Below, in pieces: positions 19,910 through 42,931 of a stretch of 64,000 nucleotides of DNA; position 1 is the first letter of the stretch, and every line of letters starts with the position of its first letter. The notes under the pieces were generated by a model. It saw only the letters and a list, made by a program, of their open reading frames with translations, was not told where the DNA came from and made no database searches. The DNA lies in NCBI GenBank assembly GCA_035288925.1, contig DATDYS010000013.1, forward strand, positions 22,168 to 86,167. The letters run 5' to 3'. Source of the DNA: Candidatus Nanoarchaeia archaeon. Lineage in GTDB: Archaea > Nanobdellota > Nanobdellia > Woesearchaeales > GW2011-AR4. Position numbers and translations under genes: made by a program.

Positions 19910-20422
19910 ATGTCAGAAAAAAAACAGGTAATTTACGATTTGAGGTACAGCTACAGCGGGCCTTTCCTGGTCGAGGATTTTTATGGCTATGTTGATGGCT
20001 GGATAAAAGAGCACGGGTTTGAGAAGGAGCCGAAAAAATCCCTTGAGTACGTGACGAAAGACGGCAAGCAAATCCAGTGGATTATTGAAGTCCACAGCCA
20101 CCTGGATGATCTGCACCACGGAATCGTGTTCCTGAAAGTCCTGATGAGCAATGTGAAGGAAACCGTGATAAAAATGAACAATAAAAAAATCAGGATAAAC
20201 AGCGGCGACGTCTTTGTCAACATTGACGGGTTCATTGACGCGCACGTGCACTCCACTTTCTGGCAGGTCAAGCCGGTTTATACTTTCATGAGAACTATAG
20301 TGGACAGGTTTGCGTACCATTTCCACTCTGACAAATACGACGGGGTTGTAGCAGAGCAGTCCCACAAGCTGTTCAAGGACATCCGTGCATTCTTCAACAC
20401 GCAGAAATTCAAGTACGAGTAA
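19910..20422 (+). CDS. hypothetical protein, paralog 3 of a tandem triplet
   Basis: 170 aa, same family. Confidence 0.6.
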   Translation: MSEKKQVIYDLRYSYSGPFLVEDFYGYVDGWIKEHGFEKEPKKSLEYVTKDGKQIQWIIEVHSHLDDLHHGIVFLKVLMSNVKETVIKMNNKKIRINSGDVFVNIDGFIDAHVHSTFWQVKPVYTFMRTIVDRFAYHFHSDKYDGVVAEQSHKLFKDIRAFFNTQKFKYE

Positions 20423-20941: not shown

Positions 20942-21026
20942 GCCTCTGTAGCATAGTAGCCATTGCGTTGCCTTGGTATTTCAAACAAACAGGCAAAGGT
21001 CGTGGGTGCAATTCCCATCAGAGGCT
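20942..21026 (+). tRNA. candidate tRNA (anticodon GGT, Thr-like) with a 12-nt anticodon-loop intron; atypical T-loop
   Basis: Acceptor GCCTCTG/CAGAGGC. Anticodon stem TTGCC/GGCAA. T-stem GTGGG/CCCAT. The T-loop reads TGCAATT (G at 55), which is unusual. Confidence 0.35.
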
Positions 21027-22077: not shown

Positions 22078-22201
22078 GGGCCTGTGGTCTAGCGGTATGA
22101 CGTCACCTCGACAAACGGCAAAGTCCGTTTACACCTTGTGGGACATAAAGTCCCGAGTATCGAAACGGTGAAGGCCACCAGTTCGAATCTGGTCAGGCCC
22201 A
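22078..22201 (+). tRNA. tRNA (anticodon GAC, Val-like) with a ~51-nt intron; position 33 is C, not U
   Basis: Acceptor GGGCCTG/CAGGCCC, then A. D-arm GTCT-AGCGGTA-TGAC. Anticodon stem TCACC/GGTGA. T-arm ACCAG-TTCGAAT-CTGGT. The intron contains two hairpins (ACGG..CCGT, GGGAC..GTCCC). Confidence 0.5.
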
Positions 22202-27657: not shown

Positions 27658-29358
27658 GTGTTTTGTGGTGCAAAAATGATAAACAAACAGCTATATCGTG
27701 AATTGCAGGAATCTATTAAAAATAGCTGCAATTCACGTGATAGACAATTGCGCGTAAATGAAGTAAATCAGCACAATTGTCTATATAAAAATTTGGAGAT
27801 AGGAAGTGTTGTTCCGATAGTTGAAACACTCCCTTTTGCAATAAATCCGGTAGAGTATTTTGCAAAATTATCTGATTACGGAAGAAAGAAAAATTCATTA
27901 TTATTTGAATCAGCTTCAATCGTGCCAAAATATGGCGAGAGGAGCTTGGGGACTTCTGACCCGTGCCTTAAAATAATCGGCAGAGGGGAATCTTTTGAGA
28001 TAACTGCCCTGAATAAGGCTGGAATTAAATTCCTTGATTTTCTTAAGAATGATTTTGATTTTTGCGATGAAGTTGAATATTCCAAAGATTACATTAAGGG
28101 AAAATTAAAGCCAAAAAGGGAAAATGTAAGTGAAAATGAAAGATTGAAGCTGAAAAACCATACGGATATTTTAAGGGCAATTGCATTCAAGTTTAAGCCT
28201 GCTTCAAAACCATTTATTCCTTACTGCGGGCTTTTTGGCGCGATTTCTTATGACTTCATAGATCAGTTTGAGGATTTGCCCAAAAATGAAATTGATTTAT
28301 TGGAAGATGCTGATTATGTTTTTTATTTTGTGGATAATTTGTTTATGGTTGACCACAAGGAGCAAAAAACTTATTTTGCCGCAAACGCGCTGGTCACTAA
28401 AGATTTTGAAGAAGCTTATTCTGAATGCATTTCAAAGATTCAAAATTACAAAGAGTTAGTTAATGAAAAATTTGACGCTTCCAAACTTAATGATAATCCA
28501 AATAAATCTAAAATAAAATTTGAAAGTGATACAACCAAAGAAGAGTTTATAGAGCAGGTAAATAAGATTAAAAACCATATTTTGGCCGGCGATGTTTACC
28601 AGTGTGTTATATCAAGGACTATTAGCACTGAGTTTAATGGAAACGCTTTTGATATTTATAAAAAATTGAAGGAAGTAAATCCAAGCCCTTACATGTTTTA
28701 TATCAACAATTCAGACGAAATTGTTCTTGGAGCTTCTCCTGAGATGAATTTAAGAGTCGAAGGTGACAAGGAGAAAATAGTTGAAATTCGACCAATTGCA
28801 GGAACAAAGCCAAGAGGAATAGTAAATAGTAAAATTGATTCTGATTTGGATTCAAGATATGAGATTGAATTAAAAACTGATGCAAAGGAGATTGCAGAGC
28901 ATACAATGCTTGTTGATCTAGCAAGGAATGATATCGCCAGAATTTCAAAGCCCGGAACAAGGTATGTTGACGAGCCTTATACGATTGAGAAATATTCTCA
29001 TGTGCAGCATTTGGTTTCAAATGTTTCAGGTGTCTTGAAAGATGACTTGGATGCTTTGCATGCTTACCTTGCGACGATGAACATGGGAACTTTGAGCGGG
29101 GCTCCAAAGGTCGAGGCAATGAAACTGATTAGATTGTATGAAAAGACGAAAAGAGGATTTTATGGCGGGGCAGTTGGATATCTAACGCCAAGTGGAGATA
29201 TGGATAGTGCTATTTTGATACGTTCTATTAGAATTAAAGATAAAAAAGCTTATGTCAGGGTTGGTTCCGGGATTGTACATGATAGCAATCCTGAGTCTGA
29301 GTTTGTTGAAACTGAAAGAAAGGCTAGGGCTTGTTTGAAAGCTATTGAAGGTGTTTAA
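27658..29358 (+). CDS. trpE: anthranilate synthase component I
   Basis: 566 aa. Chorismate-binding core LVDLARNDIARIS...GAPKVEAM. Has insertions. Confidence 0.9.
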   Translation: MFCGAKMINKQLYRELQESIKNSCNSRDRQLRVNEVNQHNCLYKNLEIGSVVPIVETLPFAINPVEYFAKLSDYGRKKNSLLFESASIVPKYGERSLGTSDPCLKIIGRGESFEITALNKAGIKFLDFLKNDFDFCDEVEYSKDYIKGKLKPKRENVSENERLKLKNHTDILRAIAFKFKPASKPFIPYCGLFGAISYDFIDQFEDLPKNEIDLLEDADYVFYFVDNLFMVDHKEQKTYFAANALVTKDFEEAYSECISKIQNYKELVNEKFDASKLNDNPNKSKIKFESDTTKEEFIEQVNKIKNHILAGDVYQCVISRTISTEFNGNAFDIYKKLKEVNPSPYMFYINNSDEIVLGASPEMNLRVEGDKEKIVEIRPIAGTKPRGIVNSKIDSDLDSRYEIELKTDAKEIAEHTMLVDLARNDIARISKPGTRYVDEPYTIEKYSHVQHLVSNVSGVLKDDLDALHAYLATMNMGTLSGAPKVEAMKLIRLYEKTKRGFYGGAVGYLTPSGDMDSAILIRSIRIKDKKAYVRVGSGIVHDSNPESEFVETERKARACLKAIEGV

Positions 29359-29935
29359 TATGAATATCCTGATGATTGATAATTTCGACTCATTCACTTT
29401 CAATTTGGTTGATGAATTTGAAAAAAGAAATTGCAAAGTTCATGTATATAGAAATAATATTAGTCTTGAGAATTTTGAAAGAATAGTTGATGAGATAAAA
29501 CCTTCACTAATTGTTATTTCTCCCGGTCCTTCTACTCCTAAAGATGCTGGAATTTCAATTGATGTTATAAAAAAATATTCCGGTGAAATTCCAATATTTG
29601 GCGTTTGCCTTGGGCATCAGGCAATAATTGAGGCTTTTGGCGGTATTGTAGATAAAGCTCCTGAAGTGTTTCACGGAAAGCCTTCTAAAATCAGCCATGA
29701 TGGGAAAAATATCTACAAAAATCTTTCAAATTCACTGCAGGTTGCAAGGTATCATTCTTTATGCGGCTTAAAAGTTCCTGATTCGCTGGAAGTTACTTCA
29801 AAAACAAACAGTGGAATTGTGATGGGCGTTCGCCATAAGAAATTCTTTGTTGAAGGAGTGCAGTTTCATCCCGAGAGCATTCTAACTCCTGACGGCGGAT
29901 TGATGATTGAAAATTTGTTAGAGGGATTACAATGA
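29345..29935 (+). CDS. trpG: anthranilate synthase component II (class I glutamine amidotransferase)
   Basis: GVCLGHQ catalytic Cys box and HPES His box. Confidence 0.9.
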   Translation: MKVFNMNILMIDNFDSFTFNLVDEFEKRNCKVHVYRNNISLENFERIVDEIKPSLIVISPGPSTPKDAGISIDVIKKYSGEIPIFGVCLGHQAIIEAFGGIVDKAPEVFHGKPSKISHDGKNIYKNLSNSLQVARYHSLCGLKVPDSLEVTSKTNSGIVMGVRHKKFFVEGVQFHPESILTPDGGLMIENLLEGLQ

Positions 29936-30942
29936 TTAAAGAAACAATTTCAAAATTATCAGAAAAAAAGAATTTGACTGAAATTGAAACAGCTAGCACA
30001 ATGGAATTCATAATGGAAGGCAAAGCCACAACTCCGCAAATCAAGGAATTTTTGCTCGGACTGAAAACAAAAGGGGAAACTATTGATGAGATAACCGCGT
30101 GCGCAAGGATAATGAAATCCAAATCAATCAAAATTGATCCCGATGCAATGCATTTGGTTGATACGTGCGGAACTGGCGGAGATAACTCAGGCACTTTCAA
30201 CATTTCAACAGCCGCTGCTTTCGTTGCTGCAGGCGCAGGCGCTTCTGTTGCAAAGCATGGAAATAAATCAATCAGCTCAAAGTGCGGAAGCGCTGATGTA
30301 CTGAAAGCGCTTGGAGTTAATATTGAACTGGAGCCTGAAAAAGTTTCTAAATGCATTGAAAAAGTCGGAATAGGATTTTTGTTTGCTCCAAAATTTCATC
30401 CTGCAATGAAATATGCGATGGACGCTAGGCGGGAACTTGGAGTCAGGACGATTTTTAATATTTTAGGCCCGCTTACTAACCCAGCCGGCGCCAAATCGCA
30501 GTTAATTGGGGTGTTTGATGCAAAATTAATGCCTATCATGGCAAATGTTTTGAAGAATCTTGGAAGCAGGCATGCAATGATTGTAAATGCAAATGGATTG
30601 GATGAAATTTCAATAAGCTCTAAAACCGATGTTTTTGAATTAAAGCATGGAGAAATTCATAATTATTCCATTAATCCTTCTGATTTTGGATTTGAATTAA
30701 GCTCGATTGAAACTTTAAAGGGAGATGCGCCTGAAGAGAATTCCAAGATTATTACTGACGTTTTAAATGGATTGAAAGGGCCTAAAAGAGATGTGGTTGT
30801 GTTAAATGCCGCAGCAGCTTTATTGGTTTGCGGTCTTGCAAAAGATTTTGAAGGTGGGATTGCAATGGCTTCAAGGTCGATTGATAGCGGCAATGCGTTG
30901 GAAAAACTAAAACTTTTGAGGGAACAGAATGGACATTCTTGA
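29932..30942 (+). CDS. trpD: anthranilate phosphoribosyltransferase
   Basis: DTCGTGGD motif, KHGN. Confidence 0.9.
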   Translation: MIKETISKLSEKKNLTEIETASTMEFIMEGKATTPQIKEFLLGLKTKGETIDEITACARIMKSKSIKIDPDAMHLVDTCGTGGDNSGTFNISTAAAFVAAGAGASVAKHGNKSISSKCGSADVLKALGVNIELEPEKVSKCIEKVGIGFLFAPKFHPAMKYAMDARRELGVRTIFNILGPLTNPAGAKSQLIGVFDAKLMPIMANVLKNLGSRHAMIVNANGLDEISISSKTDVFELKHGEIHNYSINPSDFGFELSSIETLKGDAPEENSKIITDVLNGLKGPKRDVVVLNAAAALLVCGLAKDFEGGIAMASRSIDSGNALEKLKLLREQNGHS

Positions 30943-31699
30943 CAAATTCATTGAACAGGCAAAAGAAAATGTGAAACGCGGATATTATGATATATCGCGT
31001 GGGGCTATGCTTGATATAAAGCGAAATTCCCTAAAGCAAAAACTGCTGTCCCAATATTTTACGTTAATTGCTGAAATAAAGCACGCTTCCCCTGCAGGAG
31101 AGTATTCTTTTGATGATGTGGATGCAAATGAGCTGGCATTCAAGTTCAAAAAAGCAGGCGCAGATGCCATTTCAGTTGTGGTAGAGCCAAGAATTTTCAA
31201 AGGGCGCCTGGATAACATCACTATCGCAAAGAAAACTAATTTGCCCGTGCTTTTCAAGGATTTTATCATTGGGGAAACACAAATTAAAAGCGCTGCTGCA
31301 TTGGGAGCAGACTGCATACTTTTGATTGTAAAAGTCGGAGAAAGGCTGAATTTGGATATTGGCAAACTGATAAGAAGAGCGCATTCTTATGGCATGGAGG
31401 TTTTGCTGGAGTGCTATGATAAAGAAGAAGCCCAAAAAGCATTAAGGACAGAAGCAGATATCATTGGCATAAACAACAGGGACCTAAAAACTCTTAAAGT
31501 CGATTTAAATCAGACAAGGGAAATGATGGAATATCTTAGAACTCAAAATCGCCCGGTAATAAGCGAAAGCGGAATAAAGTCAGATAAAGATGCTGAATTT
31601 GTCAAATTGCAAGGTGTCAATGGAATATTGGTCGGCACTGCCATCTGGACTGCAAATGACCAATACGCTAAAATAAAAGAGCTTAGGCTGCGTGAATGA
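30929..31699 (+). CDS. trpC: indole-3-glycerol phosphate synthase (monofunctional; no TrpF domain)
   Basis: 256 aa. IAEIKHASP and INNRDLKT motifs. Confidence 0.85.
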   Translation: MDILDKFIEQAKENVKRGYYDISRGAMLDIKRNSLKQKLLSQYFTLIAEIKHASPAGEYSFDDVDANELAFKFKKAGADAISVVVEPRIFKGRLDNITIAKKTNLPVLFKDFIIGETQIKSAAALGADCILLIVKVGERLNLDIGKLIRRAHSYGMEVLLECYDKEEAQKALRTEADIIGINNRDLKTLKVDLNQTREMMEYLRTQNRPVISESGIKSDKDAEFVKLQGVNGILVGTAIWTANDQYAKIKELRLRE

Positions 31700-31792
31700 T
31701 ATATTCAAATTAACAAAATAAATGAATATTATGCGGAGAGAATATTAAATAAAATAACACAAAGAAATTGAATCGAGACTTTATGTCTCTTC

Positions 31793-31857
31793 AAGCTTGA
31801 CGAGTTTCTTTTGGTCAAGCTTTTCTTTGTTAAAGAAAAGGTTGTTGGTGAACAATA
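31793..31857 (+). promoter_or_regulatory. conserved leader element: AAGCTTGAC-N12-GTCAAGCTT palindrome plus TTTCTTTGTTAAAGAAAAGGTTGTTGG, upstream of trpB
   Basis: Perfect 9-bp inverted repeat. The downstream 35-nt block recurs almost unchanged at 35494-35524 (aroB leader) and inverted at 43075-43114. Confidence 0.6.
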
Positions 31858-33033
31858 ATGAAAACTTTAGGAAAATTTGGAGACTTCGGAGGAATATTTG
31901 TTCCGGAAACTTTGATTCCGGCGCTTGAAGAATTGGAAGAAGCGTTTTTTAGGTTGAAGGATGATAAAAAGTTTAATTCCGAGCTAAAAGATTTGCTTGA
32001 GAAATACGCGGGAAGGCCGACTGCTTTAACTTTCTGCCCAAATTTAAGCAGGAAGCTTGGCTTTAAGCTTTATCTTAAGCGGGAAGATTTGCTGCACACA
32101 GGCGCCCATAAGATAAACAATGCTTTGGGGCAGGCTTTGCTTGCAAAATACATCGGAAAGAAAAGATTGATTGCAGAAACGGGTGCAGGGCAGCATGGAG
32201 TTGCAACTGCAACAGCCGGAGCCCGCCTTAATTTCAAGACAGATGTTTACATGGGCTCAAAAGACATTGAAAGGCAGAAATTAAATGTCCTTAGGATGAA
32301 ACTGCTTGGCGCAAATGTTGTTCCCGTTGAATCAGGCTCTAAAACTCTTAAGGATGCCATTAATGAGGCACTTCGTGACTGGACTGCCAATGTTGAAGAT
32401 ACTCATTATCTTCTTGGAAGTGTACTGGGGCCGCATCCGTTTCCAACCATGATTAAATATTTCCAGAGCGTAGTTGGAATTGAAGCGCGGAAGCAGATAC
32501 TTGAAGCTGAGGGCAGATTGCCTACCCATATAATTGCCTGTGTCGGAGGCGGCTCAAATGCTATCGGAATCTTTAATTCATTCATTGATGATAAAAGCGT
32601 GGGATTGATTGGCGTGGAAGCCGGTGGGGAAGGGATTAAGGGCGGAAATCACGCTGCCCGTTTTGCAGATTCTTCGCTTGGAAGAGTCGGAGTCATACAC
32701 GGCACGAAAACATTTGTCTTGCAGGATAAATACGGCCAGATACACAATACTTCTTCAATAGCCGCAGGCCTTGATTATTGCGCTGTTGGACCTGAGCATA
32801 GCTTATTGAGAGATATTAAAAGAGTTTTATACACTTATGCAACTGATTTGGAGACACTTGATGCTTTTAAGGTATTATCTAAAGAAGAAGGGATTATTCC
32901 TGCGCTTGAAAGCGCGCATGCTGTTGCTCATATTTTGAAAATTGGCAAGAGCTTGAAGAAGGACGATGTTGTAATAGTAAACCTATCGGGAAGGGGAGAT
33001 AAGGATTTGGATCAGATTCAGGAATATCTTTGA
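31858..33033 (+). CDS. trpB: tryptophan synthase beta chain
   Basis: 391 aa. [12 protein letters not shown]-lysine motif. Confidence 0.95.
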
Positions 33034-33134
33034 TTTAAGATTTGATTTTGATTAGGATAATTAGGATTAAAATAAAAATAAAACATTAATGGCAGGCAAA
33101 CACGGGTTTTCTTGGTGAAAACCCTACTCACAAG

Positions 33135-33166
33135 GGAAATTTCCGAACTTCGTAACGGAAATTTCC
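33135..33166 (+). promoter_or_regulatory. intercistronic stem-loop GGAAATTTCC-N12-GGAAATTTCC between trpB and trpA
   Basis: Two copies of the self-complementary 10-mer GGAAATTTCC at 33135-33144 and 33157-33166. Confidence 0.4.
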
Positions 33167-33220
33167 TCTGCATTCGGTTTGCCGCCATACGACTCAGTTT
33201 TCGTCCAACGGAACTTCAAA

Positions 33221-34030
33221 ATGAAAACCTATGAAGAAGTTTTTTCAAATCTGAAAAAGGAAAATAAAGGCGCTTTGGTTGCTTTTATCGTAGCCGGAGA
33301 CCCTGATTACGAGACTAGCCTTCAAATAGCAAAAGCAGTTTGCGATGCAGGTGCTGATATTCTTGAAATCGGGCTGCCGTTTTCCGACCCTATCGCTGAC
33401 GGAAAGACCATACAGGCTGCTGATATACGGGCTTTAGGGAATGGAATGAATACTGACCTATTTTTTAAGTTTGTAAGCGATTTAAGGAAGCATACTGATG
33501 TTCCCATTGGCGTATTGTCATATTATAATCTTGTTTACCAAAGAGGCATAGAGAAATTCTGCATTGATTCAGGGAAAGCCGGAATCAACAGCATCCTGAT
33601 TGCTGACATGACAATAGAGGAAAGCGATTCAATGATTCTTAATGCCAAGAGGCACTCTGTTGAAACTGTTTTCATGATAACTCCGCTTACAAATGATTTG
33701 AGGATAAAAGAAATATCTTTACATTCCAATGGATTTATTTATCTGGTTTCAAGGCTTGGAGTCACAGGCGCCAGAGAGGATTTAAGCAAATCCACTTTGG
33801 AATTAATTAAAAGAGTCAGGAAATTTACTGACAAACCTCTTTGCGTTGGATTTGGAATAAGCACAGCTTCCCATGTTCAAGATGTAATTAACGCAGGCGC
33901 AGACGGCGCAATTGTCGGAAGCGCGATTGTCAAGATTATTGAAGAGAATTTAGAAAACAAAAAAAAGATGGTGGAAGAAGTTAAGGAGTTTGTGAAAGGA
34001 TTAAAAAACACAACATTTAAAAACACATAA
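33221..34030 (+). CDS. trpA: tryptophan synthase alpha chain
   Basis: ORF track frame from 33179. The likely start is MKTYEEV at 33221. Motifs GLPFSDPIADG, GFGIS, GSAIV. Confidence 0.85.
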   Translation: MKTYEEVFSNLKKENKGALVAFIVAGDPDYETSLQIAKAVCDAGADILEIGLPFSDPIADGKTIQAADIRALGNGMNTDLFFKFVSDLRKHTDVPIGVLSYYNLVYQRGIEKFCIDSGKAGINSILIADMTIEESDSMILNAKRHSVETVFMITPLTNDLRIKEISLHSNGFIYLVSRLGVTGAREDLSKSTLELIKRVRKFTDKPLCVGFGISTASHVQDVINAGADGAIVGSAIVKIIEENLENKKKMVEEVKEFVKGLKNTTFKNT

Positions 34031-34213
34031 TCAATCTTATCAATAATATGGAAAGCATCGTTTCAACTTCAAATGTAAGTTCTTTTAGCTATTTCTATTT
34101 CTGGCAGTAAGCCAGACCACCATAATTTTTAAATCATTGGCAATTTCAAGCCTTGATAGGGCTATATTCAGTTTTATCAAGTCGCTTTGAGTTCGGCACG
34201 CCACCATGGCGCT

Positions 34214-34288
34214 GGCTTGACGGGGGTTGTCCCGTGACATGTGAGCGAGTTCGCAACGAGCTCACTCGCAAGTCACTGGGTGTCAAGC
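34214..34288. repeat. second copy of the ~70-bp palindromic element (GCTTGAC...GTGACATGTGAGCGAGT...GAGCTCACTCGCAAGTCAC...GTCAAGC), upstream of the DAHP synthase gene
   Basis: Shares TGACATGTGAGCGAGT, GAGCTCACTCGCAAGTC and GTCAAGC with 740-808. Confidence 0.6.
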
Positions 34289-34369
34289 GAGGCGAAGCCG
34301 ACAGCCGCCATTGTGTGGCGTGCACTAATAAGAATAAACAATTAAAATCAATCAACGGAGGAAACTAAA

Positions 34370-35386
34370 ATGATAATCGTATTGAAAGAAGAAACATCAA
34401 AAGAGGAAATAAAAGATTTAATAGAGAAAATAAAAGAAACCGAGTTAAGGCCGGTTGAGTTCAATGGAGACGAAAGAACTGTAATCCATGTTCTGGGAAA
34501 CGTCACAGAGCAGACTGTAAACAGCTTCAGCTCCATTAAATGCGTTGAAAGGGTAATGAGAATTCTAAAGCCGTTCAAGCTGGCGTCTAAAGAGCATCAT
34601 CAGGGAACAACTGTTGTAAGAGTTGGAGATGTGAGTATAGGAAACGGAGAGATAACCGTAATAGCAGGCCCCTGCTCGATTGAATCAGAAGAGCAGATAA
34701 TGGAATCAGCAAACATAATGAAGAAATTGGGAATAAAAATCATGAGAGCTTCAGCATTCAAGCCAAGAACTTCGCCTTACGATTTCCAGGGAATGGGGAT
34801 AAAAGGATTAAAGCTGTTAAAGAAAGTCAAGGAAAAAACAGGAATATTAACAGAAACAGAAGTAATGGACGTAAGGGACGTTCCCATAGCTGCAGAATAT
34901 GTTGATGTCCTGAGAGTTGGAGCAAGAAACATGCAGAACTATGACTTGTTAAAGGAATTGGGAAAGATAAACAAGCCGGTCATATTAAAAAGGGGAATGT
35001 CAGCCACAATCAATGAATTCCTGATGGCAGCTGAATACGTACTATACCACGGCAACAAAGATGTGATATTATGCGAAAGGGGAATAAGGACTTTCGAGAC
35101 CGCTTACAGAAACACTTTGGATGTAGGCGCAGTTGCAGTATTAAAAAACATGACGCATTTGCCTGTGATAGTTGACCCAAGCCACGCAGCCGGAAAAAGA
35201 GAATTAATTGCACCGTTAAGCAAGGCAGCGATTGCAGCAGGGGCAGACGGGTTATTAATTGAATGCCATCCAAATCCAGAGAAAGCACTAAGCGATGGAG
35301 CGCAATCCATATATCCTGAGCAGTTAGCGCAATTGTTAAAAGATCTAAAGCCTTTATGCGAGGCTTTGGGAAGAAAATTGGGTTAA
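34370..35386 (+). CDS. 3-deoxy-7-phosphoheptulonate (DAHP) synthase, class I-beta, with N-terminal ferredoxin-like regulatory domain
   Basis: 338 aa. ~70-aa N-terminal extension, then the KDO8PS/DAHPS I-beta core (CSIESEEQ, KPRTSPY, DPSHA). Confidence 0.8.
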   Translation: MIIVLKEETSKEEIKDLIEKIKETELRPVEFNGDERTVIHVLGNVTEQTVNSFSSIKCVERVMRILKPFKLASKEHHQGTTVVRVGDVSIGNGEITVIAGPCSIESEEQIMESANIMKKLGIKIMRASAFKPRTSPYDFQGMGIKGLKLLKKVKEKTGILTETEVMDVRDVPIAAEYVDVLRVGARNMQNYDLLKELGKINKPVILKRGMSATINEFLMAAEYVLYHGNKDVILCERGIRTFETAYRNTLDVGAVAVLKNMTHLPVIVDPSHAAGKRELIAPLSKAAIAAGADGLLIECHPNPEKALSDGAQSIYPEQLAQLLKDLKPLCEALGRKLG

Positions 35387-35439
35387 AAACAATAAAAACT
35401 AAAAATAAAACAAGAAAAATAAGGGCTTTATGCCCTTCC

Positions 35440-35524
35440 AAGCTTGACGAGTTCCTCTTCAAGAGGGCTTTGAACTTTGTTCAAAACTTTTTTGTCAAGC
35501 TTTTTCTTGTGGAGAAAAAGGTTG
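35440..35524 (+). promoter_or_regulatory. conserved leader element, aroB copy (AAGCTTGACGAGTT ... GTCAAGCTTTTTCTTGTGGAGAAAAAGGTTGATGG)
   Basis: Same 5' AAGCTTGACGAGTT and 3' GTCAAGCTTTT-CTTTGT-AGAAAAGGTTG-TGG blocks as the trpB leader. Confidence 0.6.
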
Positions 35525-36652
35525 ATGGACACCATAAATGCGAAGATAAAATCAAAGGAATACGATTACCAGATTTTCGTAGGCAGCTCTATCCTAAACG
35601 AACTGGCAGATTTTATTAAAAAAAATCACAGCGGAAAGAAAGTTGCAGTCATAATGGGAGAGCACACCAGCAGGCTGCACAAGCCAAAGCTCGGCAAAAT
35701 ATTAAGCGACCTAAACCCATTGTTCATAACAGTCCCTTCAGGAGAATCTTCCAAATCCAGGGAAATGAAGGAAGAAATAGAGGACAATTTATTAGACCAT
35801 AAGTTCGGAAGGGATTCTTTAATCATAGCAATTGGCGGCGGAGTAATCGGAGATTTAGCCGGATTCGTGGCATCGACTTTCAACAGGGGGATTCCGGTAA
35901 TTCATGTGCCGACTACTTTATTGGCAATGGCAGACTCATCCATCGGCGGGAAAACGGCGATAAACACAAAGCACGGAAAGAATTTAATCGGAACTTTCCA
36001 CCAGCCCGATGCGGTATTTGTTGACATGGATTTTCTGGAAACGCTGCCGGATGACGAATTCAAAAGCGGATTGGGAGAAATCATAAAGCAGGGAATAATA
36101 CAAGACAAAGAACTGTTCAATTTTCTGGAAAAACACTGCAAGGAAATTCTTGAAAGAAAAAAAGACGTCCTGCAGCATATAATAAAGCGCTCAATTGAAT
36201 TAAAAAAGCAGGTTTTTGAATTGGACTCTCATGAAATGGGTTTGAGGCAGATTCTGAATTTCGGGCACACTTTCGGGCATGCTTTGGAAGCATATTACAA
36301 TTACAAGATAAAGCACGGATTTGCAGTAGCCATAGGAATGGTTGTAGAAGCAAGAATTTCAGCAATGACAAATAGTCTAAAGGAAAATGAGGAAGAAAGA
36401 ATCAGAAACATGATTAAAATATTCGGGTTTCCCATGTCTGATTCCGCCGGCACTTCAAAAATAATGGAACTTATGGTATCGGACAAGAAATCAAAAGGAA
36501 ACCGGCCAAGGTTTGTCTTGATTGACAGAATAGGAAAAGCAAAAGAAAAAGACGGCAGTTTCTCGTTTGAAGTTGACAGCAAGGTCGTAGAAGAAGCGAT
36601 AGAAAAAAGCAAAGATGAGTATGATTCAAAAACCAATCAGTTAATAAAATGA
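35525..36652 (+). CDS. aroB: 3-dehydroquinate synthase
   Basis: The ORF track starts at 35477. The likely start is MDTINAK at 35525, which falls inside the conserved leader block. Motifs GGGVIGDLAGF and the metal-binding His region. Confidence 0.85.
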   Translation: MDTINAKIKSKEYDYQIFVGSSILNELADFIKKNHSGKKVAVIMGEHTSRLHKPKLGKILSDLNPLFITVPSGESSKSREMKEEIEDNLLDHKFGRDSLIIAIGGGVIGDLAGFVASTFNRGIPVIHVPTTLLAMADSSIGGKTAINTKHGKNLIGTFHQPDAVFVDMDFLETLPDDEFKSGLGEIIKQGIIQDKELFNFLEKHCKEILERKKDVLQHIIKRSIELKKQVFELDSHEMGLRQILNFGHTFGHALEAYYNYKIKHGFAVAIGMVVEARISAMTNSLKENEEERIRNMIKIFGFPMSDSAGTSKIMELMVSDKKSKGNRPRFVLIDRIGKAKEKDGSFSFEVDSKVVEEAIEKSKDEYDSKTNQLIK

Positions 36653-39600
36653 TTGAGATAAATTCTGTTCAGAATCTTGATGCAGAGATTTCCATTCCTG
36701 GCAGCAAGTACATAGCAAACAGGTTGCTGATTATATGCGCTTTAGCCAACGGAACTTCAGTTCTGAAAAATGTGCCTGACAATGAGGATATTAATAATTC
36801 CATAAAAGCCCTGCAGCAATTCGGAATCGAGATTGAAAAAAATAAGGATAATCTGACAATAACCGGAACAGGAAAATTAAAAGCTCCAAATAACGAAATA
36901 AATGTAGGCGACTCAGGAACTTTATTAAGATTTATAACTGCATTTTCCGCTCTTGCAAAAGGGAACACCAAAATTACCGGAAGCAAAAGGATTCAGGAAA
37001 GGCCTATTTCTGATTTATTAAAAAGCTTGAGTGATTTGGGCATCAAATCCAATTCAAAAAATGGAAATGCGCCTTTGACAATTACCGGCGGGAATTTAGA
37101 TGGCGGAAAAACGAAAATCAAAGGAAGCATAAGCAGCCAGTTCATCAGCGCTTTGCTGTTAATCTCGCCTTTTGCAAAAAATGATGTAGAAATAACCATA
37201 GATGGGGAGCTGGTTTCTTCTGGATACGTTGATTTAACAATTAATTTGATGAAAGAATTCGGAGTAAATGTGGAAAGAAGCGGAAGCAGATTCACAGTCA
37301 AGGCAAATCAAAAATATAAATCAAGAAATTTTACAATTCCATCTGACTGGGCCTCTGCAAATTATTTTCTGGCAGCTGCAGCAATTGTTCCGGGAACTGT
37401 GACAATTAATAATCTGGATTTTAAGTCAAAAGTCCCTGAATCAGGATTTTACAGGGTATTGGAGAAGATGGGCTGCAAAGTTTTGCTGGATAATAATTCA
37501 ATAAAAATAACTGGAACTGATAAGTTAAAGCCAATTGATGCAGATATGGGTTCAATGCCAGATTCAGCGCAAACCTTAGCTGTTGCTGCACTATTTGCAG
37601 ACGGGACGACAAAAATAAGAAATATTGGAAATTTAAAATTCAAGGAATCAGACAGGATTAATGATACTGCAACTGAATTAAGGAAATTGGGCGCAGATGT
37701 CGAAGTAAAAAACGACGAATTAATAATTAATAATAATTTAAAAAAACTAAATTTCAAATCGGCAATCATTGATTCCCATAATGACCACCGGATGGCAATG
37801 AGCTTTGCAGTTGTCGGATTAAGAATTCCTGGAATTAAAATAGATAATCCGGAATGCGCAAACAAATCATTTCCGCAATTTTTCGCCAAATTAAATAAAA
37901 TAACAGCAAAGAAACAGAAAAATATTGTTCTGATTGGGTACAGGGGAGCCGGAAAGACGTCAACGGCAATGGAATTATCAAAATTGACAGGAATGAATAT
38001 CATTAGCACAGATGAAGAAATCTCAAAAAAAGTCGAAATGCCGATAGCGGATTTTATCGATAAAAACGGATGGGATGAGTTCAGGAAAGCTGAAAATGAA
38101 GTAATTGAAAGCCTCAAAGATGCTGATGGAGTGATAATTGACTGCGGCGGCGGAGTGGTTGAGAATGAGAATAATATCAAACTAATAAAACAAAATGGAG
38201 TGGTTTTCTGGCTTCGTGCGCAGGTCAGCGTGCTTGCTGACAGGATTAAAGACACTAAAAACAGGCCCTCAATAACCGGAAAAAAATCCTTTATTGACGA
38301 GATTGACGAAGTCTTGAGAAAAAGAATCCCCTTTTACAGGAAAGCCTGTGATTTTGAAATTGATACCAGCAACGAAAATCCGCTTCAAATAGCCCAATTG
38401 ATAATAAAATTGTATTCAATTCAACCTGTGAAAACAAGAATATGCGCCGTGATAACCGCAGACAATGTGAAAGACGCGCTTAATGATATGAAAAAAGCGG
38501 AATCCTCGGATTTGGTAGAATTAAGGCTGGATTTCATCAAGAATATTGATGAAAACAAAGTTAAGGAATTAATGAATAATAAAAAACAAAGAATAATTGC
38601 AACACTAAGGCCAGTTAAATTTGGTGGATTATTCAAAGGAGAAAAGAAAGGGAGATTTGCATTATTAAACAAAGCAATTGAGCTCGGAGCGGATTTTGTT
38701 GATGTTGAATTCGGCTCTGAAATTGCCGCGGATATTATTAAGAATAAAAAATCTTCAAAAATAATAATTTCGCACCATGACTTTAATGAAACTCCGTCAC
38801 TGGAAAAATTGGAATCAATCTACAGCCAAATAGATAAGTTGAATCCTGATTTTGTGAAGATTGTAACGGCTGCAAATTCAATCAATGATAATTTTATAAT
38901 TTTTGATTTACTTAAAGGAAAAAATAATTTAATATCATTTTGCATGGGGCAAAAAGGGGAGATTTCAAGGATTTTAGCGCCAAAGTTCGGCTCTGCGGTT
39001 ACATACTGCAGTATAAATCAAAACAAAGAATCCGCTCCCGGGCAGATTACTCAGGAAGAAATGAATAATCCGTATCATGTTGGTTTAATCAATCCGCAAA
39101 CTAATGTAATTGGAATAATTGGAGAATTCGCCGAGAATTCAATGTCAAAGTACATGCACAATCCTAATTTTGTGAAGAACAACGCCAATTTTGTCTATGT
39201 CCCTTTCAAAGTGTCTCCAAATGAATTAAGCGAGTTCATGGATAATTTCAAGAAATTTAATTTTAAGGGGGCTGCTGTTACGATTCCGCATAAAGAAACC
39301 ATAATCGGCCTGATACACAATGTAAATGAAACTGCGGACGAAATCGGGGCTGTAAATACGTTGGTTAGGGATGACGAAAAAATCATAGGCTATAATACTG
39401 ATTATTACGGCGCCGTTGAATCATTAAAGGAGAAATTAAATTCAAAAGGAAAGAAAGTCTTGGTTATTGGAGCAGGAGGGGCTGCAAGAGCCGTTATTTA
39501 CGGATTAAAGAAAGAAGGGGCAGAAATTATAATAATTAACCGAACAGGAGACAAGGCAAAAGAGCTTGCAGAAAATTTTAAGGTTAGCTTTGACAAATTT

Positions 39601-39921
39601 GAGAATATAAAATCATTGGCAAGGCAGGCTGATGTAATAATCAACACAACCAGTTTGGGGATGACGCCATTTGAAAACGGATGCGCCCTGGAAGAAGATG
39701 AATTGCCGGAAGGAAAGATTGTCATGGATGTTGTCTACAAGCCGGTTATCACAAAACTTATTAAGCTTGCGCAAAAAAAGAAATGCAGGACAATCACTGG
39801 CGACAGAATGCTTATATACCAGGCAGTAAGGCAATTTGAATTATGGACGAAAATAAATCCTGGATTTGAAAATATGGAAAAAGAACTGGCAAAGGAAATT
39901 AATAAAAATAAAAAACAATAA
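36649..39921 (+). CDS. tetrafunctional shikimate-pathway fusion: EPSP synthase, shikimate kinase (AroK-type), 3-dehydroquinate dehydratase (type I), shikimate dehydrogenase. AROM-like domain order
   Basis: 1090 aa. The EPSPS N-terminal ~420 aa carry LGNSGT-like GDSGTLLRF. P-loop kinase IGYRGAGKTS. Type I DHQase segment ICAVITAD...LRLDF. SDH segment with GAAVTIPHK and GAGGAARAVIYGL. Overlaps the aroB stop by 4 nt. Confidence 0.8.
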   Translation: MIEINSVQNLDAEISIPGSKYIANRLLIICALANGTSVLKNVPDNEDINNSIKALQQFGIEIEKNKDNLTITGTGKLKAPNNEINVGDSGTLLRFITAFSALAKGNTKITGSKRIQERPISDLLKSLSDLGIKSNSKNGNAPLTITGGNLDGGKTKIKGSISSQFISALLLISPFAKNDVEITIDGELVSSGYVDLTINLMKEFGVNVERSGSRFTVKANQKYKSRNFTIPSDWASANYFLAAAAIVPGTVTINNLDFKSKVPESGFYRVLEKMGCKVLLDNNSIKITGTDKLKPIDADMGSMPDSAQTLAVAALFADGTTKIRNIGNLKFKESDRINDTATELRKLGADVEVKNDELIINNNLKKLNFKSAIIDSHNDHRMAMSFAVVGLRIPGIKIDNPECANKSFPQFFAKLNKITAKKQKNIVLIGYRGAGKTSTAMELSKLTGMNIISTDEEISKKVEMPIADFIDKNGWDEFRKAENEVIESLKDADGVIIDCGGGVVENENNIKLIKQNGVVFWLRAQVSVLADRIKDTKNRPSITGKKSFIDEIDEVLRKRIPFYRKACDFEIDTSNENPLQIAQLIIKLYSIQPVKTRICAVITADNVKDALNDMKKAESSDLVELRLDFIKNIDENKVKELMNNKKQRIIATLRPVKFGGLFKGEKKGRFALLNKAIELGADFVDVEFGSEIAADIIKNKKSSKIIISHHDFNETPSLEKLESIYSQIDKLNPDFVKIVTAANSINDNFIIFDLLKGKNNLISFCMGQKGEISRILAPKFGSAVTYCSINQNKESAPGQITQEEMNNPYHVGLINPQTNVIGIIGEFAENSMSKYMHNPNFVKNNANFVYVPFKVSPNELSEFMDNFKKFNFKGAAVTIPHKETIIGLIHNVNETADEIGAVNTLVRDDEKIIGYNTDYYGAVESLKEKLNSKGKKVLVIGAGGAARAVIYGLKKEGAEIIIINRTGDKAKELAENFKVSFDKFENIKSLARQADVIINTTSLGMTPFENGCALEEDELPEGKIVMDVVYKPVITKLIKLAQKKKCRTITGDRMLIYQAVRQFELWTKINPGFENMEKELAKEINKNKKQ

Positions 39922-40009
39922 TAAAAATACATTACGAAACTAACTACAATACGACTAAAAATTCAATACAATACTAATAATCATCAACGAAAAATCAAAA
40001 ACTTAAAAG

Positions 40010-41113
40010 GTGAATAAAATGCCGGGAAACTCGTTTGGAGAATCATTCAAAATAACAAACTGGGGCGAGAGCCACGGAAAGGCGATTGGAGTGGTCATAG
40101 ATGGGTGTCCGGCACTATTAGAACTGAATGAAGGTTACATACAAAAATTTCTTGACAGAAGAGCGCCAGGCCAAAGCGATATCACAACTCAAAGGCAGGA
40201 GCCTGACAAGGTGGAAATACTTTCAGGACTGTTCAACGGCAGGACAACAGGAACTCCAATCAGCATGATAATCTCCAATAAAGATTACAAAAAAGAAGAC
40301 TACAAGGAGATTGCAGCAGCCTTCAGGCCCAGCCATGCGGACTTTACGTACCAAAAAAAGTTTGGAATCAGGGACATGTCCGGCGGAGGAAGAAGCTCGG
40401 CAAGATTGACCGCAGGAAATGTCGCAGCAGGGGCAATTGCATACAAGATACTGAATGAAAGGTTTGGCGTTGAAGTGGTTGCTTATGTAAAGCAGATTAA
40501 AGATGTACAAGCTGAAATTGATTCTGAAAAAGTTTCAAAAAAAGACGTTGACTCAAACATTGTCAGGTGTCCGGACAAAACTGCGGCAAAGCAGATGATT
40601 GAATTAATTGAAAATGCAAAAGACAAGGGAGATTCCGTAGGCGGAATAATAGAATGCATCATAAGAAACGCCCCAATCGGACTGGGAGAGCCGATTTTTG
40701 ACAAGCTGGAAGCGGATTTGGCAAAGGCAATGCTCTGCATCAATGCAACAAAGGGCTTTGAAATAGGCTCCGGGTTTGAAGGGACTAAATTATTCGGCAG
40801 CCAGCATAATGATGCCTTCGTGATGAAAAACGGAAAAGTTGAAACAAAAACAAACAACTCAGGCGGGGTCCAGGGAGGAATTTCAAACGGAATGCCAATC
40901 ATCTTTAGAGTCGCATTCAAGCCCACATCTACAATTCAAAAAGAGCAGGATACTATTGACATCAAAGGAAAGTCAGTAAAATTAGCCGCTAAGGGGCGCC
41001 ATGACCCATGCGTTTTGCCCAGGGCAGTCCCGATTGTCGAGGCAATGGCTTCTCTTGTCCTGTGCGACCATTACTTAAGGCAAAGGGCGCAGAACGGTGA
41101 TAAATTTGATTGA
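40010..41113 (+). CDS. aroC: chorismate synthase
   Basis: 367 aa. GESHG, GRSSAR motifs. Confidence 0.9.
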
Positions 41114-42116
41114 TGAGCTAAGAAAGGCAATTGATGGGCTGGATGAAAAAATATTAAATCTGCTTTCCAAAAGGAAAAATTTAGCTAAGGAAGTTGCGAA
41201 ACTAAAGGAAAATCTGGACTTGCCTGTTTTTGACAAAAAAAGGGAAGAGGAAATATTAAAAAATATTTCCGGCAGGGCAAAGCAGTTGGGACTTGATGTG
41301 AATTCTGTTTCAGATGTATTTAACGCAATCTTCCGGGGCTCGAGAAGCGAGCAGCAAAAGCAGATGGGCAAAGTTGAATGCAGCGTCAAAAAAATAGGAC
41401 TAATCGGCTTTGGAAGATTCGGAAAATTGATAGTAAGGCATCTTTCAGGCGACTTTGATTTTTATGTTTATGACAGATTGGCAAACAAGAATGAAATAAA
41501 AAATAATAATGCAGTCCCATCATCACTAAAGGAATTATGCCGGCTGGATATTATAATCTTAGCTGTCCCAATTTCAGAGATTAAATCTGTTTTGAATGAC
41601 ATCAAAAATTTATTAAAAAAAGATGCATTGGTTGTGGATGTCTGCTCGGTGAAAGAATACCCTATTAAATTAATGAAAAATATTTTGCCAAAAAGCGTGC
41701 AGATTCTTGGGACTCATTCAATGTTCGGGCCCGATACCGCCTACGACTCATTGGAGGAAAAAAAAATAGTATTGTGCAAAGTCAGGATTCAAAATAATCT
41801 TTATCTGCAAATCAAAAGATTTCTTGAAAGTAAGCAGCTTGCAGTTATCGAGGCAACTGCGCAGCAGCATGATGCGGAAATGGCAAAATCGCTTGTGCTG
41901 ACTCATTTTATCGGAAGAGCACTTATGGATATAGGAGTTTCTGATATGGAAATTGATACAAAAAGTTACAGGGATTTGCTCAGAATTTTAGATACTGTAA
42001 AAAATGACACATGGCAGCTTTTTGAGGATATGAATAAATTCAACAAATATTCAAAAGGAGTGAGAAAGGATTTAATCAAGTCGTTAAGCAACGTGGAGAA
42101 AAAATTATCAAAATGA
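41097..42116 (+). CDS. tyrA: bifunctional chorismate mutase (AroQ) / prephenate dehydrogenase
   Basis: N-terminal AroQ helix [20 protein letters not shown], then the NAD-binding [10 protein letters not shown]. Confidence 0.75.
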
Positions 42117-42931
42117 AAATAGCATACCAGGGAATCAAGGGGGCTTACAGCGAGGCAGCTGTCTACAAGCATTTTGGAGACAAAGCAGAATCTGCCGGGT
42201 TTGATACTTTTGAGGAAGTGTTTGAAGCAGTCAAATCAGGCAAAGTGGATTATGGAGTTGTGCCTGTTGACAACACAATAGCTGGAACTGTTGCTGCAAA
42301 CTGCGATTTGCTTTTAAAGCACGATGTTTATGTGATTGCGGAGATTTATTTGGATATCCATCATAATCTGCTTTCGCATAAAGGAACTTCATTGAAAGAT
42401 TTGAAAATTATTTATTCGCATCCCCACGCGCTGGAGCAGTGCAGGGAATTCATTAAAAAGCATAAATTAAAGTCAGTGCCGGAATATGACACTGCGGGAG
42501 CTGCAAAAATAATAAAGGAAAGAAACAAGAAAGACGAGGCTGCCATAGCTTCCGAATTCTGTGCCAAAATTTATGGTTTGGGTATAATTGAAAAAAATAT
42601 TTCAACTGCAAAGAACAACATTACAAAATTTTTTGTTTTTGTCAACAGCGATAAAATTCCCAAAAATATCAAGCAGGAAAAAACAAGCATTGTTTTCAGG
42701 ACAAAGCATTACCCGGGAGCATTGATCAACTGCCTTCAGAGGCTGGCAAAGCATGATATTAACCTGACCAAGCTTGAATCAAGGCCGGTTCCTGAAAATC
42801 CATGGGAGTATTCTTTCTATGCGGACTTTGAAGGCGGAGTCGAGGACGAAAAGGTAAAGCTTGCATTAAGCGAGATGGAAGCTTCTTGTGAATTCTTAAA
42901 GGTGCTTGGAAGCTATCCGAAAGGAAAATGA
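42113..42931 (+). CDS. pheA: prephenate dehydratase with C-terminal ACT domain
   Basis: 272 aa. PDT domain then an ACT domain with ESRP. Confidence 0.85.
   Translation: MKIAYQGIKGAYSEAAVYKHFGDKAESAGFDTFEEVFEAVKSGKVDYGVVPVDNTIAGTVAANCDLLLKHDVYVIAEIYLDIHHNLLSHKGTSLKDLKIIYSHPHALEQCREFIKKHKLKSVPEYDTAGAAKIIKERNKKDEAAIASEFCAKIYGLGIIEKNISTAKNNITKFFVFVNSDKIPKNIKQEKTSIVFRTKHYPGALINCLQRLAKHDINLTKLESRPVPENPWEYSFYADFEGGVEDEKVKLALSEMEASCEFLKVLGSYPKGK

Follow-up and report, generated by a model that had tools for sequence, protein, structure and literature searches.

The AROM (Aro1) protein of fungi and protists is a homodimer held together by its dehydroquinate synthase (DHQS) and dehydroquinase (DHQase) domains. 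Its domain order is AroB-AroA-AroK-AroD-AroE, abbreviated B-A-K-D-E (PMC6851490). The plant DHQ-SDH enzyme, for which structures from Arabidopsis are available (PDB 2GPT and 2O7S), joins D to E but is without EPSP synthase (EPSPS) and shikimate kinase (SK) domains. The window analysed here, a stretch of DNA of 64,000 nucleotides, contains an ORF in which A, K, D and E are joined in the AROM order. It is quite probable that this ORF encodes a tetrafunctional DPANN enzyme, that the fusion arose within the archaeal lineage and that the AROM order is convergent.

An earlier note on this DNA had described four intact, AROM-ordered domains in one ORF directly behind aroB, and this description holds. 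The domains named for annotation (EPSP_synthase, SKI, DHquinase_I and Shikimate_DH) are all present, and the protein aligns with 7u5s and 6hqv in a single colinear phmmer stretch. In the 1090-residue ORF (Table 1) the Pfam matches are EPSP_synthase (residues 6-415, E 1.6e-112), SKI (432-587, E 8e-40), DHquinase_I (599-807, E 7e-59) and, for shikimate dehydrogenase (SDH), Shikimate_dh_N, Shikimate_DH and SDH_C (823-1080). The junctions lie at nucleotides ~37909, ~38425 and ~39085, close to those estimated before. The NCBIfam aroA, aroD and aroE models each exceed their own cut-offs, with 433.9 bits for TIGR01356 (cut-off 287), 171.5 for TIGR01093 (139.3) and 263.2 for the bacterial-type aroE model TIGR00507 (200.2). 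The NCBIfam shikimate kinase equivalogs fall short on the kinase domain (126.5 vs 204 and 125.1 vs 161 bits) and so assign it to no subfamily; SKI (PF01202) gives 136.9 bits against a cut-off of 22.1.

Table 1. Features of the aromatic supraoperon, in window coordinates
Feature	Coordinates	Strand	Size or residues	Basis and remarks
trpE-trpG-trpD-trpC-trpB-trpA, upstream part of the same supraoperon	27658..34030	+		Pfam
DAHP synthase type I-beta, N-terminal ferredoxin-like (FXD) domain	34370..35386	+		DAHP_synth_1, DAHP_snth_FXD; NF006421 492.7 bits
aroB, 3-dehydroquinate synthase	35525..36652	+	375 aa	Pfam DHQ_synthase, DHQS_C; TIGR01357 388 bits (cut-off 305)
aroAKDE, predicted tetrafunctional EPSP synthase/shikimate kinase/type I 3-dehydroquinase/shikimate dehydrogenase	36649..39921	+	1090 aa	ATG start; ORF, Pfam, NCBIfam
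EPSP synthase domain, class I type	36649..37908	+	aa 1-420	E. coli AroA identity 40%; catalytic residues
AroK-type (P-loop) shikimate kinase domain	37915..38418	+	aa 423-590	Pfam SKI; motifs
Type I 3-dehydroquinate dehydratase domain	38431..39078	+	aa 595-810	Pfam DHquinase_I; TIGR01093
NADP-type shikimate dehydrogenase domain	39094..39921	+	aa 816-1090	TIGR00507; catalytic pair, motifs
aroC, chorismate synthase	40010..41113	+		Pfam Chorismate_synt E 5.6e-144; start GTG 40010 or ATG 40019
Chorismate mutase/prephenate dehydrogenase fusion	41097..42116	+		Pfam CM_2, PDH_N; NCBIfam
Prephenate dehydratase	42113..42931	+		Pfam PDT E 4.6e-64

The residues expected in each active site are in place. 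The EPSPS domain keeps the equivalents of K22, R27, G96, S169-Q171, D313, K340-E341, R344, H385-R386 and K411, and scores 290-300 bits (about 295) to class I structures of the E. coli and plant enzymes vs 118-136 bits to class II structures (CP4 and S. pneumoniae); model score, residues and structure-class comparison all identify it as a class I EPSP synthase. The kinase domain retains the Walker A motif GAGKT, the shikimate-binding Asp, GGG and the lid Arg of AroK/AroL-type P-loop kinases. The DHQase general-base His (SHHDF, H710) and Schiff-base Lys (K737) do not vary within the fusion family, and neither do SDH residues K882 and D918, G941-A945 (GAGGAAR) and N964-T966 (NRT). From these residues all four domains of the ORF are predicted to be catalytically active, as a tetrafunctional shikimate-pathway enzyme. 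In the AlphaFold (AF2) model all four domains are confidently folded (pLDDT 90.2) and low confidence is confined to the linkers at 420-422 and 590-594; the pTM of the monomer is 0.54. The top Foldseek match of the model is the AROM structure 6hqv, in agreement with the domain order. The EPSPS domain matches E. coli EPSPS with a TMt of 0.94, and the D-E pair superimposes on Arabidopsis DHQ-SDH (TMt 0.89, rmsd 2.2 Å) with a similar relative placement of the two domains. The enzyme may dimerise through its DHQase domain, and fusion may bring an advantage in channelling or stoichiometry.

The fusion gene belongs to a 15-kb trp/aro/tyr/phe supraoperon. The start of aroB at 35525 and its 4-nt overlap with the fusion gene, both given in the earlier note, are exact as read from the sequence: aroB begins with an ATG preceded by GGAG, its product is 100% identical to the 375-residue database protein HLC61669.1, and its TGA (36650-36652) and the ATG of the fusion gene (36649) share the four nucleotides ATGA. 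AroB may be translationally coupled to the fusion protein. The fusion enzyme would perform pathway steps 3 (DHQase), 4 (SDH), 5 (SK) and 6 (EPSPS), and together with the separate DAHP synthase, AroB and AroC it would convert PEP and E4P to chorismate, which would supply the adjoining Trp, Tyr and Phe genes. No trpF was found, and a tblastn search for PRAI was negative.

The host is a DPANN archaeon of the class Nanoarchaeia, Woesearchaeota-like. An archaeal host is confirmed by two tRNA genes in the window with anticodon-loop insertions of ~52 and ~12 nt, by aEF-1alpha, Srp54 and Elp3, and by the NCBI label on identical proteins, 'Candidatus Nanoarchaeia archaeon'. The pathway in this operon is not of the archaeal type (ADTH/DHQS-II entry and GHMP kinase); its genes carry the domains DAHP_synth_1, DHQ_synthase and SKI. 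Both points had been anticipated: the Pfam match and motifs agree with an AroK-type P-loop kinase instead of a GHMP kinase, and Pfam and NCBIfam place both entry genes in the canonical DAHP synthase and DHQS types. The sampled clusters of Thaumarchaeota and Bathyarchaeia are arranged [D][E][A][C] (one gene per bracket) and are without AroK. Distances of the AroA domain are 0.95-1.08 to Desulfobacterota, CPR bacteria and E. coli, and 1.20-1.54 to Bathyarchaeia, Thaumarchaeota and Micrarchaeota. A bacterial A-K fusion (P0054), found in a context with sigma-70 and ClpB, falls within the AroA clade that holds the DPANN sequences (bootstrap support, BS, 83). The nearer bacterial distances and the placement of this fusion support the proposal of a bacterial-like and possibly horizontally acquired pathway. 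The operon is of bacterial type, its nearest outsiders are bacterial, and horizontal acquisition is possible.

Relatives of the host carry the same gene string cut differently. Three loci (L004, L005 and L006) have the arrangement [B][A-K-D-E], two (L002 and L003) have [B-A][K-D-E] with a 4-nt overlap, and single loci have [B][A-K][D-E] (L008) and [B][A][K-D-E] (L015). The fusion boundaries are therefore evolutionarily labile within a constant B-A-K-D-E order. It is proposed that the fusion arose within an archaeal lineage having a tightly packed aroB-aroA-aroK-aroD-aroE-aroC operon. Adjacent aro genes overlap by a few bases, so that losing or gaining a stop codon would fuse or split them, and the sublineages would bear different cuts of one colinear string. 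The boundaries have probably shifted as stop codons appeared or disappeared where these genes overlap. On whether genes were fused or split, a parsimony reading of five lineages and the broader D+E tree disagree.

Split versions in close relatives, and the origin of the sequence from a metagenome-assembled genome, could suggest that mis-assembly or a frameshift has joined separate genes, or that at least one domain is a decayed pseudo-enzyme. This is very improbable. The exact 1090-residue protein (NCBI HLC61670.1, Candidatus Nanoarchaeia) was assembled independently on 19 contigs (NCBI, JGI and ENA), the longest of 134 kb, which excludes an assembly artefact. Full-length homologues number 13 at 70-84% identity, plus one at 47%, and every junction is kept and the catalytic residues are unchanged in 14/14 of these diverged family members; the pLDDT of about 90 extends through all domains. 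In each single-domain tree the A-K-D-E family forms a group (BS 99-100) whose DPANN neighbours do not change from domain to domain; the four domains thus cohere in phylogeny and do not point to unrelated donors, a prospect the earlier note had raised along with frameshifts. The concatenated A+K+D+E neighbour-joining (NJ) tree places all the DPANN loci listed above in one clade (BS 100) with eukaryotic AROM separate (BS 100). In the D+E tree the family is nested among D-E and K-D-E forms. The deep backbone of every tree is weakly supported (BS about 0-60), and a supported affinity to eukaryotic AROM, whether as a member or as a sister of its clade, is absent from the single-domain, concatenated and D+E trees.

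AROM is the best full-length PDB match in sequence and structure, and with the colinearity this would fit a scenario in which the archaeon recently gained a eukaryotic AROM gene horizontally and the DHQS domain then became separate. Distances and trees effectively refute such a gain, and we give it hardly any credence. The EPSPS domain alone scores ~295 bits to the E. coli and plant enzymes vs 370 bits for four domains to AROM, at an identity of merely 27-35%; for A, K, D and E alike, bacterial groups are closer than AROM; the eukaryotic clade stands apart; the linkers are compact and GC is uniform; and the overlaps between operon genes are prokaryotic. Common ancestry, in which AROM goes back to a B-A-K-D-E operon or fusion of prokaryotes or the fused gene was exchanged between the DPANN lineage and early eukaryotes, is unlikely but deserves more weight. 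B-A-K-D-E is not the pathway order, yet it is identical in both and absent from the other prokaryotic groups sampled; B is fused to A in one DPANN lineage; and the AroB, K and D domains of DPANN are marginally the nearest to AROM among sampled prokaryotes (minimum AroB distance in the window 0.92 to AROM vs 1.12 to E. coli), in a sample biased toward relatives of the query. However, a sister relation is unsupported in every tree, the AROM EPSPS is nearer to E. coli/proteobacterial AroA than to DPANN AroA, and the archaeal SDH fits the bacterial aroE model but not the AROM-type model TIGR01809 (123.5 bits vs a cut-off of 196). A five-domain prokaryotic protein was not found among the best matches, all checked matches of 1300-1770 residues being on eukaryotic contigs. 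Since A-K and D-E blocks are frequent and B-(A-K)-(D-E) is one of six block orders (1/6), with other orders also found, a coincidental AROM order is not unlikely. Convergence, with the common A-K and D-E blocks assembled behind B and not direct descent, is most likely. There is a slim chance that the B-A-K-D-E string of Nanoarchaeia/Woesearchaeota is a surviving prokaryotic relative of the AROM precursor. If so, the non-pathway order of AROM would have been inherited from, or exchanged with, a prokaryotic operon or fusion and would not be a eukaryotic invention.

The expectation that such fusions are rare in prokaryotes holds for the four-domain A-K-D-E form, found in 2/1.84 billion 50%-identity representatives (P0002 and P0016), but not for A-K, D-E and K-D-E fusions, which are common. 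The direct relatives are the K-D-E (~660 aa), D-E (~495 aa), A-K (~600 aa) and B-A (~860 aa) proteins of Woesearchaeota/Nanoarchaeota, with 43-64% identity. As in the A-K-D-E family, their operon order is B-A-K-D-E-C and G, C, CM-PDH and PDT lie next to it, but each chain has fewer domains; the family, seen in just the two clusters, carries fusion furthest on the A-to-E side. Operons of CPR Microgenomates (Roizmanbacteria and Daviesbacteria) have the B-A-K prefix and the A-K fusion in common with the archaeon (37-40% identity); however, these are bacterial, are ordered [B][A][K][E][D][C] with E-D where the archaeon has D-E, and also include A-K-E fusions, and the four-domain form was not seen in those sampled. 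The same four domains occur in one chain of ~1160-1185 aa in other prokaryotic contexts as D-E-A-K (P0249/P0251, L097) and K-A-D-E (P0329, L098), and [D-E-K][A-C] is also found. The D-E-A-K and K-A-D-E forms group apart from the A-K-D-E family in trees, and their differing domain orders indicate independent fusion events; fusion of shikimate genes is therefore recurrent. The D-E half of the archaeal fusion aligns with plant DHQ-SDH over residues 597-1069 (281 bits, 34% identity).

AROM and the archaeal fusion share the EPSPS-SK-DHQase(type I)-SDH order in one colinear alignment, a class I EPSPS, pathway steps 3-6 and a DHQS that directly precedes. Unlike the five-domain AROM, in which DHQS is fused, the archaeal protein has four domains and its DHQS lies in a separate, overlapping ORF (35525-36652), so that the DHQS-mediated dimer does not apply to the fused chain. 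Its linkers are much shorter (1090 aa, where the corresponding part of AROM takes up about 1150-1200 aa), and its gene is a prokaryotic one that forms part of an operon. The likeness to AROM is architectural only, and the DPANN A-K-D-E protein is a real, undescribed prokaryotic variant colinear with AROM.

The fusion in the window and its relatives form a natural series of AROM-like fusion proteins among DPANN archaea, one that is real, clean and useful. The fusion is encoded by a single ATG-initiated ORF in the ORF listing, and Pfam places four modules on it (see the table), namely EPSP synthase (A), AroK-type shikimate kinase (K), type I dehydroquinase (D) and shikimate dehydrogenase (E), the content and order that the earlier note had described. 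A 3.3-kb open frame at 36-37% G+C with four such E-values is far beyond chance expectation. The ORF upstream encodes 3-dehydroquinate synthase (aroB, B). Its stop codon, TGA at 36650-36652, shares bases with the start ATG of the fusion at 36649 (…AAAATGATTG…), and the 4-nt overlap of that note is read as ATGA at 36649-36652. This overlap suggests translational coupling of the fusion with AroB. The ORF listing begins aroB at TTG 35477; ATG 35525, the start proposed earlier, has GGAG before it and gives a 375-aa product that matches a database protein at 100% identity.

Genes of the aromatic supraoperon (window coordinates; starts except for aroAKDE) and domains of the fusion (fusion residues)
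Feature	Position	Strand	Pfam E-value	Residues invariant in the 14-sequence alignment
trpE	27658	same as fusion		
trpG	29345	same as fusion		
trpD	29932	same as fusion		
trpC	30929	same as fusion		
trpB	31858	same as fusion		
trpA	33179	same as fusion		
DAHP synthase I-beta with FXD domain (aroG position)	34370	same as fusion		
aroB	35525	same as fusion		
aroAKDE (1090 aa)	36649..39921	+		
aroC	40010	same as fusion		
Chorismate mutase / prephenate dehydrogenase (CM-PDH)	41097	same as fusion		
Prephenate dehydratase (PDT)	42113	same as fusion		
EPSP_synthase	6-415		1.6e-112	K20, R25, S162-Q164, D305, K332-E333, R336, H380-R381, K406
SKI	432-587		8.3e-40	G433, G435, K436, T437, D455, R479, G500-G502, R539, R559
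DHquinase_I	599-807		6.8e-59	H710, Schiff-base K737
Shikimate_dh_N / Shikimate_DH / SDH_C	823-1080			S831, S833, K882, N903-T904, D918, G941-A945, N964-T966

Could the fusion be an artefact? Several observations show that it is not. An exact-sequence look-up found the identical protein as NCBI HLC61670.1, and 19 contigs (NCBI, JGI/IMG, ENA) carry it, the longest of 133,965 bp. The four domains are kept in 13 more full-length proteins with 70-84% identity to the fusion, and in full-length P0016 with 47-49%. All residues checked against the E. coli enzymes are invariant in the 14 members of the fusion family. The AlphaFold2 model (55-sequence alignment) has a mean pLDDT of 90.2, and values below 50 are confined to two linkers, 420-422 and 590-594. 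G+C and GC3 are alike across the domains and the adjoining genes. Per-domain trees, the check that the earlier note had proposed for a chimeric assembly, gave no sign of a chimera, and the nearest relatives are the same for all four domains. The protein is already public, under the title 'MAG TPA: 3-phosphoshikimate 1-carboxyvinyltransferase [Candidatus Nanoarchaeia archaeon]'. This annotation, as AroA only, under-describes a four-domain protein. A literature search turned up no account of an A-K-D-E fusion in DPANN archaea or any other prokaryotes, and a 2024 survey of archaeal fusions has aroD-aroE and aroE-aroK only (PMC11237513).

The DNA around homologues was parsed ORF by ORF with the domains of the window. 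The order aroB-aroA-aroK-aroD-aroE-aroC is kept in the DPANN group and the gene boundaries vary. With one pair of brackets per polypeptide, [B][A-K-D-E] is found in the window and at loci L004/L005 (78% identity) and L006 (47%), [B-A][K-D-E] with a 4-nt overlap at L002/L003, [B][A-K][D-E] at L008 and [B][A][K-D-E] at L015. A neighbour-joining tree of the concatenated A, K, D and E domains (1057 columns, 500 bootstraps) unites all these loci at BS 100. When the K-D-E part was the query, K-D-E (~660 aa) and D-E (~495 aa) proteins proved to be the common forms among Woesearchaeota/Nanoarchaeota. A D+E tree of 150 sequences nests the window family (BS 100) among D-E (sister, BS 88) and K-D-E (BS 93) forms and places a second A-K-D-E lineage (P0016/P0017) apart from it. 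Of 1.84 billion representatives at 50% identity, scanned exhaustively with HMMER, only two, P0002 and P0016, have the full prokaryote-type A-K-D-E architecture. The four-domain protein is therefore the maximal, and rare, member of a series of fusions in which the junctions have switched state again and again. Most simply, a stop codon would be gained or lost where neighbouring genes already overlap by a few bases, leading to fusion or split. The window family may have fused its genes or may have retained an ancestral state. Parsimony over five lineages suggests [B][A-K-D-E] as ancestral with later fissions, a result that is not relied on; the larger D+E tree points in a different direction.

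Among the matches listed in a genome contig scan, no species-representative genome was more than 50% identical to the window protein, and the best locus was L015. This locus (CAYRXW010000001.1), at 50% identity to the window protein, bears the title 'uncultured Methanosarcinales archaeon', a doubtful one for a DPANN-type arrangement. P0453, a protein of K-D-E type that carries the label 'Candidatus Marinimicrobia bacterium', groups at BS 100 with the unnamed K-D-E/D-E proteins P0437, P0441, P0480 and P0481 inside a broader DPANN-holding group of the D+E tree. These mismatches reflect either wrong labels or bins, or inter-domain transfer. An extra 178-aa P-loop (AAA_18-like) gene, possibly a second kinase, lies between the fusion and aroC in L004 (5723-6259) and L005 (5663-6199); in the window this gap (39922-40009) is an 88-nt AT-rich spacer only.

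The fusion gene lies within a 15-kb same-strand aromatic amino-acid supraoperon (27658-42931), which appears complete (trpEGDC-BA, aroG-B-AKDE-C, CM-PDH, PDT). No trpF (PRAI) homologue was detected by tblastn within the window. DPANN archaea are usually taken as auxotrophic and without such aromatic pathways. Despite this view, some of them appear to keep a complete bacterial-type pathway. The host is archaeal. Rfam detects two tRNA genes (20942-21026 and 22078-22201) with anticodon-loop insertions of ~12 nt and ~52 nt, which are introns of archaeal type; ARAGORN, run in bacterial mode, reported neither and gave zero tRNAs in the window. The window also encodes aEF-1alpha, Srp54 and an Elp3-type protein. 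Database proteins identical to its EF-1alpha, Srp54 and AroB are all labelled Candidatus Nanoarchaeia, and homologues carry the labels Nanoarchaeota or Woesearchaeota.

The Elp3-like ORF (54524-56527, 667 aa; 670 aa in the L004 relative) has Pfam ELP3_N at residues 4-76, and Radical_SAM begins only at residue 353 (profile positions 95-154). An insertion or a divergent half-domain could account for the ~270 residues between. No Pfam family matches four ORFs of 170-477 aa at 17218-18651 (-), 18802-19365, 19378-19905 and 19910-20422 (+), and three of them are consecutive and of near-equal size (187, 175 and 170 aa). Two large proteins with BatA/VWA domains (825 and 624 aa; DUF7406, DUF7407, DUF7408) adjoin each other at 3702-8050 (-), a pair that resembles an aerotolerance operon, here in an archaeal genome.

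The pathway is of bacterial type. The operon has DAHP synthase I-beta, DHQ synthase and a P-loop AroK-type kinase, and no ADTH route or GHMP kinase, which bears out the earlier reading of its entry steps and kinase. Sampled Thaumarchaeota and Bathyarchaeia clusters differ in being [D][E][A][C] without AroK. Window AroA is at distances of 0.95 from Desulfobacterota, 1.07 from CPR bacteria and 1.08 from E. coli, and is farther from Bathyarchaeia (1.20), Thaumarchaeota (1.32) and Micrarchaeota (1.54). In the AroA tree, the BS-83 clade with all the DPANN sequences also includes P0054, a bacterial A-K fusion whose 1.8-Mb contig encodes sigma-70, ClpB and Fur. CPR Roizmanbacteria have the B-A-K operon prefix in common with the window. 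The distances, the placement of P0054 and the shared prefix make inter-domain transfer of the pathway, in one direction or the other, likely. The suggestion of a bacterial-like, possibly horizontally acquired pathway holds as a description.

The predicted biochemistry of the fusion is ordinary. From established enzymology, AroB would make 3-dehydroquinate, which the fused chain would dehydrate through a Schiff base on K737 of its type I DHQase. The SDH domain, whose NRT motif indicates NADP use, would then reduce the product with NADPH, the SK domain would phosphorylate shikimate, the class I EPSPS domain would add enolpyruvate and AroC would complete chorismate. The predicted relative arrangement of the D and E domains is that of the bifunctional enzyme of plants (TMt 0.89). 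Dimers are the usual state of type I DHQases, and by analogy a homodimer of the fusion through this domain is possible. For AROM itself, the summary in PMC9074039 is that channelling gave no kinetic advantage. The benefit of fusion may be fixed stoichiometry, co-folding or stability, or gene compaction in a very small genome. The glyphosate/PEP loop of EPSPS (36910-36933, aa 88-95) reads D-S-G-T-L-L-R-F versus N94-A-G-T-A-M-R-P101 in E. coli, and the Phe at the Pro101 equivalent is invariant in 14/14 family members. Pro101 substitutions lower glyphosate sensitivity in class I EPSPS, and judging from this residue the family may be partly glyphosate-tolerant.

AROM is the textbook eukaryotic multi-enzyme fusion. 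It has been described as restricted to fungi and protists, with separate enzymes in bacteria and plants (PMC6851490, PMC9074039), and has the layout N-DHQS-EPSPS-SK-DHQD-SD-C (PMC6851490). The likeness put forward in the earlier note is borne out: the A-K-D-E order is the same, B is directly upstream, and the alignment of the window protein with Candida Aro1 (7u5s) and with Chaetomium AROM (6hqv) is one colinear stretch. The latter is also the top Foldseek match of the fusion model. Common ancestry is considered unlikely, and several features set the fusion apart from AROM. DHQS is fused in AROM and separate in the window, and the two proteins are no more than 27-35% identical. Against E. coli and plant class I enzymes the EPSPS domain by itself reaches ~295 bits, and the four domains together reach 370 bits against AROM. 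The SDH domain scores 123.5 bits with the AROM-type NCBIfam model, below its cut-off of 196, and 263 with the bacterial aroE model, above 200. In every tree the eukaryotic sequences make up a clade separate from the DPANN one; all are neighbour-joining trees with Kimura distances, and their backbone and deep nodes are unresolved. Distances from AROM to the sampled prokaryotic groups are about equal throughout. E. coli/proteobacterial AroA is nearer to AROM than DPANN AroA is, and for AroB, K and D the DPANN sequences come closest by a small margin that lies within noise, in a sample biased towards the query.

A search for AroB homologues gave stand-alone AroB only, and no five-domain prokaryotic protein, among the top 120. 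The 1300-1770-aa five-domain matches that were checked (P0034, P0257) lie on eukaryotic contigs with ubiquitin, Ebp2 and SMC genes, and P0320, P0328, P0348 and P0363 cluster with eukaryotes and were taken as AROM fragments. A-K occurs in 73 and D-E in 21 proteins of the sampled set, as fusions or neighbours. Since these blocks are common, only 3! = 6 block orders are available. Prokaryotes have also assembled others: D-E-A-K in P0249/P0251 (L097 1360-4917, 1185 aa, overlapping a CM-PDT gene in operon context), K-A-D-E in P0329 (L098 4028-7513, 1161 aa, bacterial context, assembly GCA_016288525.1), and, in a Micrarchaeota MAG (L054), [D-E-K] with a fusion of EPSPS and chorismate synthase [A-C] after it. 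The shared order is therefore less striking than at first sight, and with the SDH score and tree positions falling outside AROM, convergence is favoured.

The fusion is a concrete candidate for tests of where the domain order of AROM came from. The natural series can be used to ask what fusion buys, be it stoichiometry, stability, channelling or genome compaction in ultra-small cells, and the compact, intron-free scaffold is probably easy to express for structural and engineering work. Here is a prokaryote with four of the five AROM domains in one chain and in the same order, and its sister lineages cut the string at three other places.
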